Positions 49,165-57,675 of a DNA stretch of 64,000 nucleotides are shown piece by piece. Origin of the DNA: Waddliaceae bacterium (GTDB taxonomy: Bacteria; Chlamydiota; Chlamydiia; Chlamydiales; SLFE01); assembly GCA_963771045.1 (NCBI GenBank), contig CAVYRW010000004.1, positions 288,001 to 352,000 on the forward strand, written 5' to 3'. The position numbers and the translations under genes are program-made. Each line of letters opens with the position of its first letter. The first letter of the stretch is position 1. Under the pieces are notes generated by a model, which was not told where the DNA came from, made no database searches, and saw nothing but the letters and a program-made list of their open reading frames with translations.

Positions 49165-50514
49165 TTAGACTTCCAAATTGCGTTTTACAAGATCAATTTG
49201 ACGCTTAAGTCTCTCATCTTCTTTGATTTTTTGCTCTATAGCTCTGCAGGCGTGCAGAATAGTAGAGTGGGTTTTGTTGAAATAAACCCCTAAAGACATC
49301 AAAGAGTCGTTGACGAGCATTTTAGAGAGATACATGGCAACCTGGCGGGCTATGGCGACCGTTTTGGTGCGGGCGGAGCCTTTCAGATCGCTCACGCGGA
49401 CCTGGAATATTGTGGCGACGCTTTTGAGGATTTGTTCCACAGTGATTGTTTGTTTTGGAGACTGCTGGAACATTTCTCCCAAAGTGTTGATCACCAGGTC
49501 GCGGGTGATTGATGTATTCAGAAGGCGGCTATGAGCGTTCAGGCGGTTGATGGCCCCCTCCAGCTGCCTCACGTTGTTATACAGATGTTCGGCGATAAAG
49601 AAGGCGATGTCATTGGGTAGGTCAAGCTCTTTTTGTTCCGATTTATGCTTCAGAATGGCAACACGCGTTTCGAGATCGGGTATTCCCATGTGGGCCACAA
49701 GGCCCCACTCCATGCGCGCCTTCATCCTTTCAGAGAGCTTCAATTGAGATGGCGGTTTGTCGCAGGTCAAGACAACTTGCTTTCCATTGTTGGCGTAATG
49801 ATCGAGCAGGATGCAGAACTCTTCTTCGAAGTTAAGCCTGTTTTGCAGGAATTGAATATCGTCGATGAGCAAGACGTCGACATCGGAGCGATAGAACCGT
49901 TTCATCTTATCGACGGTTTTTCTCCTCAGGTTCTCTACCAGATCATTGATAAATCCTTCCGTAGTGATCAGCTGGATCCGTTTTTTCTTGTCGTTGCCTA
50001 CGATATGATGTCCTATGCTGTGGAGGATGTGTGTTTTTCCAAGTCCCACTCCGCCGTGAATAAAGAGGGGATTGTAAGATTTGCCGGGACGGTTGGCCAC
50101 CCCCATGGCAGCGGATTTGATAAACTGGTTGGAGGACCCTTCGATGAATGTTGAAAATTTGTAGCGGTGGTTCAGCTTGACTTCATAAAAGTTCGACTGG
50201 GGCGCAGGCAGCGGAACAGGTTTCGTTTTCACTGCCTGCGGCAAGGCAGGTTCAGCTGCGGGCGCTTCAATGATAAAGTTAATGGCGGGATCGCCATTTT
50301 CCCGAACTGGCAAGAACATTCCGAGTTCTTTTTTATAATTGGACAGGAGGTATTCCTGAACAAAGATATTGGGAACGACCAGAGTGATATCCTCTTCTGT
50401 TGCTTCTTTCACAACAATAGGGGCAAGCCAGTTCCCGTATGCTGCAGCCGAGCAGCGCTCTTTGACATAGGTTAAAAATTGTGTCCAAGCTTCCTGAGTA
50501 TCACAAGCGAGCAT
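49165..50514 (-). CDS. dnaA: chromosomal replication initiator DnaA (chlamydial copy near nqr)
   Basis: YNPLFIHGGVGLGKTH, LLIDDIQF, NVRQLEGA, ARQVAMY, HSTILHA. Confidence 0.95.
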   Translation of the reverse strand: MLACDTQEAWTQFLTYVKERCSAAAYGNWLAPIVVKEATEEDITLVVPNIFVQEYLLSNYKKELGMFLPVRENGDPAINFIIEAPAAEPALPQAVKTKPVPLPAPQSNFYEVKLNHRYKFSTFIEGSSNQFIKSAAMGVANRPGKSYNPLFIHGGVGLGKTHILHSIGHHIVGNDKKKRIQLITTEGFINDLVENLRRKTVDKMKRFYRSDVDVLLIDDIQFLQNRLNFEEEFCILLDHYANNGKQVVLTCDKPPSQLKLSERMKARMEWGLVAHMGIPDLETRVAILKHKSEQKELDLPNDIAFFIAEHLYNNVRQLEGAINRLNAHSRLLNTSITRDLVINTLGEMFQQSPKQTITVEQILKSVATIFQVRVSDLKGSARTKTVAIARQVAMYLSKMLVNDSLMSLGVYFNKTHSTILHACRAIEQKIKEDERLKRQIDLVKRNLEV

Positions 50515-50863
50515 AGTTTCGGTTCCTTCAAGTCTTATAAAAGTCGGTAAATTCAATTAGCTATTGGACAATTCTGGTGATGTTTAACCTTACTTATGTC
50601 TTCAGCAGCTAACTTTGAAAATTCTGCCGGTTCTTTTATTATTTGTTACAAGTTTTTGTCATCTTTTTTCCTCAAAAGGGTTGAAGGAAAAATCAAAATG
50701 GGTTATGAACATTGTTTCCACAACCTATTCTCAGGCTGTTTCAATCAAGAATCTATCATTTGGATTGATACGTTGCAACAAAAAATCCTTCCATTTTTTG
50801 CCTGAAAAACTAAGTTGCTGATAATCAAAATGAGGCAATTTGAAAAAAAATGAGATCGCATTT

Positions 50864-53771: not shown

Positions 53772-54314
53772 AATATAAATTTGATTGCTTGCAAACAGGG
53801 TTTGAATAATGACAAAAATTCAGTATGCAATTTTTTTATTAACGGTGTTCCTTTTTACTAGTCATCTAAGTGCGATTCCACAACAGCCTTCAATTACTGT
53901 TAACCAATGTTATACAACTAAAGAAGCTGTTTTTTTGCTAGTCGGTACACGCTGGCTTAGTGCAGAAGCTGTAAATTTTACAACAGATGGGATTTGTTCT
54001 TTACTTTGAAAGTAAGCCAGTTTGCTTAATTAGCTTTTGGCAAGAGGATGATTCCACTGCAAAATTTAAAGAAGGCTGGGATGTCTATAAGAAGTATGAG
54101 AAATTTTTTCCCCATGAGAACTATATTTTTGATGAGTGTAAAAGGAATGTATCTTCTAAGTTGGCCGTACATATTAATCTTATAAATAAAAAAGGATTAG
54201 TTGAGTGTATAGAAAAGTATTCAAATATTTTTAAGGATGTGTTGCATCGAGAGGCGTTGTTGCATAAATCACCACTGAGACCACCGAGCTCACTGAGAGA
54301 TTATGAGAGAGGAA

Positions 54315-54722
54315 TTAAATGATTAGACGCCTAATCCCATTTTTTAGAAGTTTTACATTGAAATTGATGAGCAAACCTCTGCCACCACCATTATGCTTAA
54401 GATAGGATAGAAGTTGGGCCTCATGAACAGGCAAGAGATTGGCCACAGATTTTATCTCCAAAATAACCTTATCTTCCACTATCATATCGATCCGGTAGCC
54501 TGAGTCTAGCTTTTTATCACGATAAATAATAGGTACTGGTATCTGCCGGTTAACTTTCAAACCCGCAAGGTTCAACTCGTAGCAAAGACAAGTTTCGTAT
54601 GTCGATTCAAGCAAGCCTGGACCTAATCTTCGATGAACTTCAATCGCAGCACCTATGATTTCCCCTGTTAAAAGGTCATTTCTTTTTTGGTTGGCTTCTT
54701 CAGTTGTGTGGGTACTAGTCAT
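54315..54722 (-). CDS. GxxExxY protein (PD-(D/E)XK nuclease-like)
   Basis: EVHRRLGPGLLESTYE, RIDMIVE, LEIKSV, AQLLSYL, GLLINF. Confidence 0.92.
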   Translation of the reverse strand: MTSTHTTEEANQKRNDLLTGEIIGAAIEVHRRLGPGLLESTYETCLCYELNLAGLKVNRQIPVPIIYRDKKLDSGYRIDMIVEDKVILEIKSVANLLPVHEAQLLSYLKHNGGGRGLLINFNVKLLKNGIRRLII

Positions 54723-54806
54723 CTTTTCTCCAAAAAGGGCGAATGCGAGCTTGCCGACAAATACCTAATACTCTAATTTTTAGTTGCAACAAATTGGAGG
54801 ATCAAG

Positions 54807-55751
54807 ATGAAGGCAAAATATCGCATTCGCAACTGGAACGACTATAACAAATCTCTTATTCAAAGGGGAAGCATAACTGTTTGGTTTTCTGAAGATGCTA
54901 TCAATAAGTGGATGGCTCCAAAAGAAATAGGAAAAAAGGGGCGTCCAAAACTCTATTCTGATGACGCTATTCTCACCGCGCTCATTATTCGATCGGTTTT
55001 TCATCTTCCATTGAGAGCACTCGAAGGATTTTTGACATCTCTTGTTATGATTTTATCTGTTGGTTTATCGATTCCTTCTTATACTCAAATTTGTCGGAGA
55101 GCTAAGTTGTTGGGGCAAGAGTTGAAGAAACTTTCGAAAAAAAAAGTCACCAATATTGTAATCGATTCAACCGGTTTGAAAGTGTACGGAGAGGGTGAAT
55201 GGAAAGTTAGGCAGCATGGAATCAGTAAAAGGCGAACATGGAGAAAGCTCCATCTGGCAGTCTGCCCTGACTCTCACGAAATTATTTTCGAAATTCTTAC
55301 TGAAAATAACGTTGCAGATTGTGAAGTGTATCCAAAACTTCTCGAGGTAATGCCGAAATCAGTTAAGCGCACATATGGAGATGGGGCTTATGATACTAAG
55401 CGATGCTATGCTGCAAATGTAGTTCACGGCTCAATTCCTATTATTCCACCCAATAGGAATGCTGTTTTTCGAGAAAACATATCTCCTTCTTGGAAGATGC
55501 GGAATATCAGTTTGCTGGAAATTTCAGGTTTAGGAGGTGATGATGATGCAAGAAAATTATGGAAAAAGTTGAAAGGTTATCATCGTCGATCACTTGCAGA
55601 AACAGCCATGTTTAGATTTAAACGATTCTTTGGAAATGATTTAAGAAGTAGAACTCTGGAAACCCAAAGGGCTGAATCAAGGGCAAAATGTGAAGCACTA
55701 AATATAATGACAAAGCTGGGAATGCCTGAAAGTGAATTAATAGCAGCTTAA
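54807..55751 (+). CDS. IS5 family (IS903 group) DDE transposase, apparently intact
   Basis: NWNDYNKSLIQRGS, IDSTGLKVYGEGEW, GDGAYD, YHRRSLAETAM; GGAGG RBS. Confidence 0.93.
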   Translation: MKAKYRIRNWNDYNKSLIQRGSITVWFSEDAINKWMAPKEIGKKGRPKLYSDDAILTALIIRSVFHLPLRALEGFLTSLVMILSVGLSIPSYTQICRRAKLLGQELKKLSKKKVTNIVIDSTGLKVYGEGEWKVRQHGISKRRTWRKLHLAVCPDSHEIIFEILTENNVADCEVYPKLLEVMPKSVKRTYGDGAYDTKRCYAANVVHGSIPIIPPNRNAVFRENISPSWKMRNISLLEISGLGGDDDARKLWKKLKGYHRRSLAETAMFRFKRFFGNDLRSRTLETQRAESRAKCEALNIMTKLGMPESELIAA

Positions 55752-55863
55752 ATCAAATCTCTCATATTCTCTCTGTGCGCTCTTGTGAGCTCTGTGGTTA
55801 ATTACGCAACAAAGCCGCATCGAGATGTCGATGGGAACAAATTTTTAAAAGAGATCGAAAATG

Positions 55864-57261
55864 GAGGATGTCCCGTTTTTAGTTGAAATTCGGTGACTCC
55901 ATATACCAGTTTACGCAACCTTTGTTTTTATTTCACTCTGAATTCGGATTATCCTTTCCCTTACCTCTTCGATTGAAAAATATCCTTTAACTTTTCGAAA
56001 TCTTTTTTCTGCATCCAAGAGGGTTGTCCCCAACTATCTTTGCGCCATTTTACCCTTTGTTTGAATACGAGTTATACGGCCCATACGCCGGCTTGTATTT
56101 GAGAACACTGATTCAATCGGATTTGTGGAATGCAGTGTCTTCCTCAAACGAGGAGGCACTTTTAAACAATGCACCGTGAGGAGTTCTTCAAAACACTCAC
56201 GGAGAGATTCCGCTGCAGATGGGTTGATTGTTTCAAGCCAACTCTCCAATTTCTTGAGTTCATTCTTAGCATCTTCATACTCAAGGCAATTTATTGCATT
56301 TCGGAAGCGATGATGCGCTTCTTTTCGATATTTTTTGGGAAGATGCTTTTGGATATTTCTGTCTTTATGAAATCGTACATCTTTGATGTATAAGTAATTT
56401 CCCAAACCTATCCTTCAGAGCCTTAATGATCCCTTTTCCTCCATCGGTTATAAAAAGTATTTTCTCATCAAGCTTTAGTCCTCTGCGGTCGAGATTGTTC
56501 AACAGCTCTTGACAAATCACATTATTCTCAGTTGCACCTTCCCAAAAACCAAGAGAATGCTTATTTCCTTCAAGATCAATTGCCATTGCCACAATAAAAA
56601 CTTTTCCTGCCAGATGATAACCATCAATGAGGATAGCGAAGGGAGAAAAACTGCTTAAATCTCTATCTTTTAATTCTTTAAGCTGTTTACTTGTCGCCGC
56701 TTTCAAATGCCGTGAAACAGAGGATTTAGAAATACCGAAGTGGTCAAGCAAACCGTCCAGCGCACCCTCATACTCCCTGCAAGAGATCCCCTTTAAAGCT
56801 TTTTCTAAGAGATCATCAGAAAATCTATCCTTATTATTTAGTTCCTGATATACAGAGAGTTGGACTTCCTTTTTATCCTTCCGCAAACGTGGCTTTTTTA
56901 CTTTTAATTTTTCTCCTCCCACATAAACAGAACCCGCCTGGGATCCCCATTTCTCCCATCCGGGCAGTGGATCGTATTTAGGCCCGGCAAGCATTTCTCT
57001 TTCTGAAGAAAAAAGAAACTCGATCAAGCATTTCTTTAAGGAAATAAAAAACTGATCGAAATCGTCCTTAGCAGCTCCAATGAGATAAGCAATTTTCTCT
57101 TCGGGGCATGCAAATGAGAGAAGATCTGTTGATTTATTCTGTGATGTGCGACTATTCATCTTGTGGCTCCTTTGTTTTTTTGTTTTTTGTCAAAATTACA
57201 TATTGACTATAGGAGCCACCTCTTTTCAAGATAAAATTTCAACTAATTTTGGGACATTCTC
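55864..57261 (-). mobile_element. IS256-family insertion sequence
   Basis: TIRs GAGGATGTCCCGTTTTTAGTTGAAATT / GAGAATGTCCCAAAATTAGTTGAAATT; 9-bp TSD TCGAAAATG at 55855 and 57262. Confidence 0.9.
55911..57159 (-). pseudogene. IS256 transposase with a frameshift (~56370) and an in-frame TAG (56034)
   Basis: GISKSSVSR, ILIDG, ITDGGKG, QRCTI/HKDRN, STNPIES; reading continues past TAG as LGTTLLDAEKRFRKVKGY. Confidence 0.88.
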
Positions 57262-57675
57262 TCGAAAATGGCAGGCATCTCATTGATTTAATCGAGGACA
57301 ATGATATTCTTCTTGGGATTCTTTTAGGTTATGGTGAAGAGTCATCGAAGCTCTATTATAGAAAGCAGATCGAATCCAAGGAAGATGTGGCACTTGATAT
57401 CCCTTATATAACGATAACATCGGAAAATGTTAATGGGATAGAAATATGCCCTGTTGCGTTTAAAGGAAATGCTCATTCGAAAGAGGTTAAAAAGATTTAT
57501 TCGAAGTTCCACAATGAGTGGAAGTTGTTTTGGGAATTTTATCTTGAGAAAAATCAGGATTCAATGAACTTTTTCCTTGAACCCTTTTGCAAATAGCGGT
57601 TCTGCAGAGCAACATTAGTAGCTGCCGCCAGTTATGATGGCGGTCAAAAAAAATGGTGGAAATTTCCGGGTTAAT

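Follow-up and report, generated by a model that had tools for sequence, protein, structure and literature searches.

The locus raises the question of why a complete GxxExxY gene lies inside the ends of an insertion sequence (IS), and whether that gene is a passenger or a working part of the element. Within the window, by which we mean the whole 64,000-nucleotide stretch of DNA analysed, the element occupies 1,564 bp (54253-55816) and is framed by identical 9-mers, the left and right copies of its target-site duplication (TSD; 54244-54252 and 55817-55825, both + strand). The left 18-bp IS903-type TIR (54253-54270, + strand), with a boundary common to all 16 copies described below, is abutted by a GxxExxY-type arm (54271-54310, + strand) of three CAC-x-GAG words with a 9-nt period (54271-54297) and a purine-rich tail; such arrays also follow free GxxExxY genes. 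Next come the GxxExxY gene (54315-54722, - strand), assigned from profiles, a structure model, fold matches and dN/dS as encoding a predicted PD-(D/E)XK nuclease of 135 aa, an 84-bp divergent intergenic region (54723-54806) in which no inner arm remains, and the gene for an IS903-group DDE transposase of 314 aa (54807-55751, + strand). The right arm (55758-55798, - strand), consisting of three words (55771-55798) and a tail, is inverted relative to the left arm, with which it pairs, and is followed by the right 18-bp TIR (55799-55816, - strand), which agrees with the left TIR at 14 of 18 positions. Each array of words thus spans about 27 bp directly inside its TIR.

The left TIR had been placed about 550 bp from the transposase, beyond a complete and divergent GxxExxY gene, by an earlier sequence-only reading; measured from the transposase ATG at 54807 the distance is 554 bp. 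Both promoters are likely located in the intergenic region, which holds an A/T-rich motif common to relatives and partly to plain IS903-group elements; a promoter and terminator consensus scan, performing at chance level, found no site in 54723-54806, so we infer the promoter positions.

The transposase matches NF033579 (IS5 family) with 289 bits against a cut-off of 140, is 44% identical to that of IS903B over 312 residues, and has an acidic triad (D120/D192/E265) kept in every alignment row (77-78 of 77-78). The TIRs, of about 18 bp, start with GGC(T/G)TTGTTG and agree with the IS903B TIR (L335) at 16 of 18 positions on the left and 14 of 18 on the right; the IS903-type ends claimed by the sequence-only reading were confirmed at the right end, which has the exact 10-mer start, and in part at the left, which differs at base 4. 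Members of the IS903 group measure 1,050-1,054 bp, with inverted repeats of 15-27 and direct repeats of 9, according to an excerpt of PMC3281130. The element resembles IS903 and IS903B in its single DDE transposase, TIRs of about 18 bp and 9-bp TSD, and differs from them in its length (1,564 bp, not about 1,050), its second, divergent gene, and the foreign arms, which lengthen the inverted repeat from the 18-bp TIR to about 58 bp (79.7% over 59 columns). With this length and two open reading frames, compared with about 1.05 kb and one, it is an IS903-group variant and not a plain member. Records carrying the identical element (L041-L044) are labelled as Waddliaceae MAGs, all genome matches to the transposase at 55% identity or more are labelled as MAGs, and the best matches on named plasmids are 46-47% identical.

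We identified 16 full-length copies in this genome, with identity of at least 99.8%, all sharing the bounds of the 1,564-bp unit first read from this one locus with its exact 9-bp duplication. An exact 9-bp TSD flanks twelve of them, and no two of these TSDs share a sequence. Among the four others, one adjoins an IS256-family insertion and one adjoins another repeat; absent duplications commonly result from recombination or adjacent deletion (PMC11708052, in the part seen). Both genes are present in all 16 copies, with a full-length GxxExxY match in each and a 1-bp deletion in the transposase of one. We additionally identified an empty site in the same-genus genome G001 (L367), where the target gene is an intact 256-aa frame and the 9-mer is single. 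The 16 copies, their distinct TSDs and the empty site indicate that the whole unit transposes, and has done so recently. The element is a recently amplified IS903-group (IS5 family) IS, likely moved by its own DDE transposase. The proposal that transposase and GxxExxY move as one module, for which the sequence-only reading had looked to further copies with the same ends and different TSDs, is borne out by these 16 copies with 12 distinct exact TSDs, and by at least 14 distinct two-gene elements. An assembly artefact and a one-off capture are ruled out by the multiple copies, the related elements and the G001 empty site. Among the 12 sites we found no fixed target sequence, only A/T-rich flanks, and a targeting role of GxxExxY is thus without support. 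Other IS903-group elements in the genome are 44-46% identical, about 1.1 kb long and passenger-free.

The transposases of the 14 or more two-gene elements are 57-100% identical, and their two genes are always divergent. Of the 80 top-ranking transposase loci in named genomes, five have an adjoining GxxExxY gene and one is a deletion derivative with both arms; GxxExxY is absent from the remaining 74, with identity of 60% or less. Gene or arm accompanies all six loci at 67% identity or more among 30 transposase loci from 300 genomes of the order, and of the other 24 only L359 has an arm (right end). Plain elements of about 1.1 kb were found only at 62% transposase identity or less in both transposase-first searches. 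Relatives with a plain left TIR and no GxxExxY, the case that the sequence-only reading had set against its own proposal, do not occur among the loci at least 67% identical, all of which have the gene or arms. The combined pattern of TIR and arm was found in 24 of 401 genomes, which belong to 11 families, against none for a reversed control, and in at least 133 metagenome stretches, with no matches in viral contigs. Gene-less miniatures are common, and 11 of 16 paired ends lie within one mismatch of a TSD; their spread indicates that GxxExxY is not needed in cis for movement. One miniature (L214:430-596), which has ends of the IS903 type and is flanked by a 9-bp duplication, is inserted in the GxxExxY gene of a relative.

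In the transposase tree, 14 rows resolve into one clade (SH-aLRT 99), and L185, L188 and L359 group with plain elements, giving at least two changes on the starred branches. In the gene tree, 13 IS-borne genes with a common GGG(R/K)G motif form one weakly supported clade, in which the free genes L004, L300 and L305 are nested, and L185 and L188 stand apart, weakly. These placements suggest that the cassette was probably captured twice, separately, by IS903-group elements; one origin was not rejected (AU p 0.08, 28 rows) in a test from which 13 long, distant or near-duplicate rows were dropped, and all trees are quick trees. The L172 gene is 87% like that of this element and its transposase groups with L201, indicating that gene and transposase swap partners.

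The GxxExxY protein matches TIGR04256 with 148 bits (cut-off 35, E 1e-43) and PF13366 (PDDEXK_3) with 142.7 bits (cut-off 22, E 8e-42). The latter, catalogued with unknown function in the part of PMC3424549 seen, is the sole match in the Pfam scan, which gave no TnsA or HUH/Y1 family. The family numbers 30,399 representatives at 50% clustering, and 121 of 300 genomes from the Chlamydiales contain it. The name-giving motif is G36-E39-Y42, and the catalytic-type residues are E39, D79, E89-x-K91 and Q103-xxx-Y107, of which E39 and D79 are invariant and E89, K91, Q103 and Y107 occur in at least 90% of 141 rows. The single conserved cysteine is C45; Fe-S cysteines are a feature of Cas4.

On the basis of a structure model (pLDDT 92.9), we predict the protein to be a PD-(D/E)XK nuclease with a restriction- or Cas4-like fold. 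Its best fold match is R.SwaI (Z 7.8, rmsd 3.2, 114 aligned), and Cas4 SSO0001 (Z 7.0, rmsd 4.2, 100 aligned) is level with restriction enzymes; nearly all top matches belong to the PD-(D/E)XK superfamily, with Z all below 8 and no single family favoured, and tRNA splicing endonucleases stand low in the list (Z 5.0-5.7). The 50 fold matches listed do not include TnsA, which excludes nothing; profile scans gave no TnsA, TnsB or TnsC family match in the element's proteins. A Foldseek search with this model gave no match at E<=0.001, and a sequence search of solved structures gave no real match; an earlier model from a narrow alignment had a pLDDT of 58, its fold matches were meaningless, and the model of pLDDT 92.9 was used in its place. 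The only PADLOC defence matches were weak ones to Cas4 (E 0.017-0.032). A complex prediction of transposase with GxxExxY scored 0.00 and was counted neither way, and RNA runs gave one contig covering 217 bp of the gene at depth 3.8, which is not evidence of expression. Proteins P0121-P0135, of 240-295 aa, carry two GxxExxY domains in tandem, a hint that the enzyme acts as a dimer.

We compared synonymous and non-synonymous change in both genes. The GxxExxY core has dN/dS of 0.03-0.06 (five IS-borne pairs with measurable dS), the transposase 0.06-0.12 (pairs with dS about 1-2) and free GxxExxY genes 0.06-0.24 (five pairs), several pairs being saturated and near-identical pairs uninformative. 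In the L045-L187 pair, dS is about 1.05 in both genes and the GxxExxY dN/dS is 0.06, the matched dS indicating that selection acted during linkage. Judged from these codon comparisons, GxxExxY inside the IS is under strong purifying selection. Of the two roles that the sequence-only reading had offered for the nuclease, cargo or functional partner, inert cargo is unlikely at dN/dS of 0.03-0.06.

The arms link the gene to a wider set of sequences. Of 33 free GxxExxY genes from the order's genomes, 21 have an arm-type array after them and 16 have one before them, compared with 4% of random windows, the detector being crude and a few of its matches noise. The GxxExxY-type arms inside both TIRs, which the sequence-only reading had overlooked, mark the passenger as a captured cassette that brought its own ends. 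The repeat word is specific to some gene clades (L013/L020, L040/L298), a qualitative result in which most rows have one common word. Within one element, the left arm resembles the right arm more closely than arms of different elements resemble each other (score 30.1 vs 23.8; nine elements), with none of 20,000 permutations reaching the observed value, and in L172 the arms are identical and the TIRs behind them different. The two arms thus evolve in concert. Recombination between TIRs is known (PMC3004938, in excerpt), and such passive recombination may be the source of the homogenisation. Of 139 distinct ends, 67 have a distance of 18 between TIR start and arm. A second peak, at 26-28, comprises 21 ends that come mostly from two lineages and include two unit-shift artefacts, and 7 ends lie in the trough at 23-25; a helical phasing of TIR against arm, with peaks about one turn apart, is suggestive only.

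We additionally identified gene-less, back-to-back arm doublets (hairpins) in 26 of 301 genomes, with up to 87 per genome and two matches in all for the reversed-pattern control. A GxxExxY match is present in 22 of the 26 doublet genomes vs 99 of 274 other scored genomes (Fisher p 2e-6, inflated by kinship, and with one doublet hit, in G101, being a TIR remnant), and some doublets adjoin a GxxExxY gene itself. There are none in this genome, indicating that the nuclease leaves no visible product here. The genomes G298, G022, G086 and G162 hold 23-87 gene-less doublets each, and tandem arm arrays occur with a 128-bp period in G216 and an 88-bp period in G032. In G002, a GxxExxY gene of the IS-borne clade stands without transposase or TIR and is followed by a doublet (L004:1470-2020), a possible escape from an IS.

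The same cassette was identified in other transposable elements. G172 contains a 1.76-kb IS630 element (L309:1937-3699) with a complete arm-GxxExxY-arm cassette and at least 14 identical gene matches, of which five copies were compared. G016 contains a high-copy unit of about 0.7 kb (L313-L317, L006, L032) that combines arm-gene-arm with what we read from its sequence as an IS5-type transposase remnant; it has 77 candidates in the genome and dN/dS of 0.05-0.07 between subfamilies. The captures by IS630 and IS5-type elements, together with partner swapping, speak for a self-contained module from which any carrier could profit, and against a partner specialised for a single transposase.

The reading that we favour, with a probability of about 45%, is that the predicted GxxExxY nuclease recognises the arms and so aids the persistence or spread of its carrier. 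An arm-gene-arm cassette would have been taken up at a point between the left TIR and the promoter of the transposase and would then have lost its inner arm, an arm copy would have reached the right end via recombination or template switching between ends, and exchange between ends would still keep the two arms alike. The protein would bind the repeated word and nick or resect DNA at or near the ends, making the founder copy likelier to be kept or multiplied, for example by donor-site repair from a sister chromosome; the basic cut-and-join chemistry would belong to the transposase, without need of GxxExxY. Counting against this explanation, plain IS903-group relatives reach several copies gene-less, miniatures move too, and the doublet association spans related genomes. 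An RNA-level role is improbable. Under it, base-pairing between the two arms of a read-through transcript would produce a long stem around the element or cassette, a host RNase or GxxExxY would process that stem, and harm to host operons or transposase expression would be limited. The complementarity of the arms within each element and around free genes, the start of arms just past stop codons and the tRNA splicing endonucleases in the fold list agree with it; single arms, however, give no folding signal (z 0.9 and 0.2), and the best fold matches are DNA nucleases.

A dedicated helper of the transposase is unlikely. Such an arm-held nuclease would cut or trim the non-transferred strand at each end, as TnsA, itself a PD-(D/E)XK nuclease encoded beside the DDE transposase of Tn7 (PMC3424549, in the part seen), would suggest. 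Arms directly inside the TIR at both ends after probably two separate captures, the two spacing peaks about one helical turn apart and a constraint on GxxExxY at least equal to that on the transposase all favour this, but plain relatives also make 9-bp duplications when they transpose, unrelated transposases keep the same cassette, L172 has exchanged partners, and the longer spacing class is largely two lineages with artefacts. Unlike the Tn7 system, moreover, the element has no Pfam TnsA match and no TnsC, TnsD or TnsE, and its close relatives are mobile without GxxExxY. Cargo that benefits the host, a nuclease for anti-phage defence or DNA repair with the IS as vehicle and the arms regulatory or left over, is distinctly unlikely; it would fit a nuclease fold, a family spread over two-fifths of the order's genomes and purifying selection in every setting, free genes included, but the PADLOC defence matches are limited to the weak Cas4 ones, copies disrupt host genes, and both the arms at the two ends and the gene-less doublets would be left unexplained. 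We regard as very improbable a neutral hitch-hiker, useless to the IS, whose intact copies are re-supplied from free cassettes via arm recombination. Module swapping, the nesting of three free genes in the IS-borne clade and the many dead or gene-less derivatives would be expected of one; the matched dS and low dN/dS of L045-L187, the gathering of the 13 IS-borne genes, which share GGG(R/K)G, in one clade, albeit weakly supported, and the intact gene in 16 of 16 copies argue against it.

A tIS carries a passenger without a role in the element's life cycle; selection on GxxExxY, as estimated from codon change, points to such a role. The tIS, with a passenger gene inside the ends of an IS, are a known class (PMC7986276, in excerpt). 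This element resembles them in the extra gene that lies between its ends and moves with it in 16 of 16 copies, and differs in that the terminal repeats of the passenger itself have been rebuilt into both IS ends, and in that the passenger is conserved across the whole family under selection as strong as that on the transposase. Like RAYT and REPIN (background in PMC5581495, in the part seen), the cassette has a small nuclease-type gene bracketed by short repeats in inverted orientation, and doublets lacking the gene are dispersed through the same genomes; this likeness applies to free cassettes elsewhere in the order, this genome being without doublets. Unlike the HUH tyrosine transposase RAYT, GxxExxY has a predicted PD-(D/E)XK fold; its arms are direct arrays of 8-9-nt words whereas REPINs are single palindromes, and mobilisation of doublets by the GxxExxY protein is putative. 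TnpB and IscB are nucleases that are proposed to promote the retention of IS200/IS605 elements and are dispensable for the transposition step (PMC10055086, in excerpt). By analogy GxxExxY may be an accessory nuclease inside an IS that aids retention; in contrast to them it has no RuvC or HNH domain and, at 135 aa, no room for a guide RNA, the transposition chemistry differs, and its proposed guidance is by protein-DNA recognition.

Our literature search, covering the main texts of open papers, ISfinder aside, found no description of the pairing or of the arms, and none of the papers naming GxxExxY, among the matches listed and in the parts seen, concerns insertion sequences. We tentatively raise, as a doubtful but wider possibility, that GxxExxY with word-array arms is an undescribed mobile or self-maintaining class, a PD-(D/E)XK equivalent of RAYT-REPIN with the doublets as its non-autonomous copies, and that the IS is a stable two-enzyme transposon, the arm-binding nuclease being a working part of both ends, akin to TnpB or TnsA but guided by protein, and having been recruited by insertion sequences several times. 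Should the nuclease aid retention or end processing, it would provide a second accessory-nuclease route for IS, after TnpB and TnsA, and would account for the abundant hairpin repeats as a family. The element is a new IS903-group variant, real and recently active, and its main value lies in the access that it gives to the GxxExxY cassette: 1.56 kb bring together the gene, the sites that the nuclease likely binds and a recently active transposase, so that one ordinary transposition assay can probe the function of the family.

The surroundings of the copies in this genome (G000) record further rearrangements. The host gene at window positions 53987-57596, which has a signal-like N-terminus and encodes 256 aa in G001 (L367), is disrupted by two insertions: this element and, about 35 bp beyond it, a member of the IS256 family (about 55860-57260) that has five other copies and a split transposase frame; two window pieces of the gene gave no match in a Pfam scan. 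A dnaA-like gene, so named from its sequence, lies about 4 kb left of the insertion (49165-50556). The copy at G000:C4:50128-51691 is inside a TnpB-like frame and adjoins a plain IS903-group element and a TnpA-like fragment, these names likewise being read from sequence. A dead sister element (G000:C4:1701314-1704285) is chimeric, its left part being of the main type and its right part 78% identical; it retains its own 9-bp duplication and is split by a second IS256-family element. We additionally identified a copy without either end (G000:C4:997659-998663) and a miniature of about 300 bp in which both arms are present (G000 C2:86189-86491).
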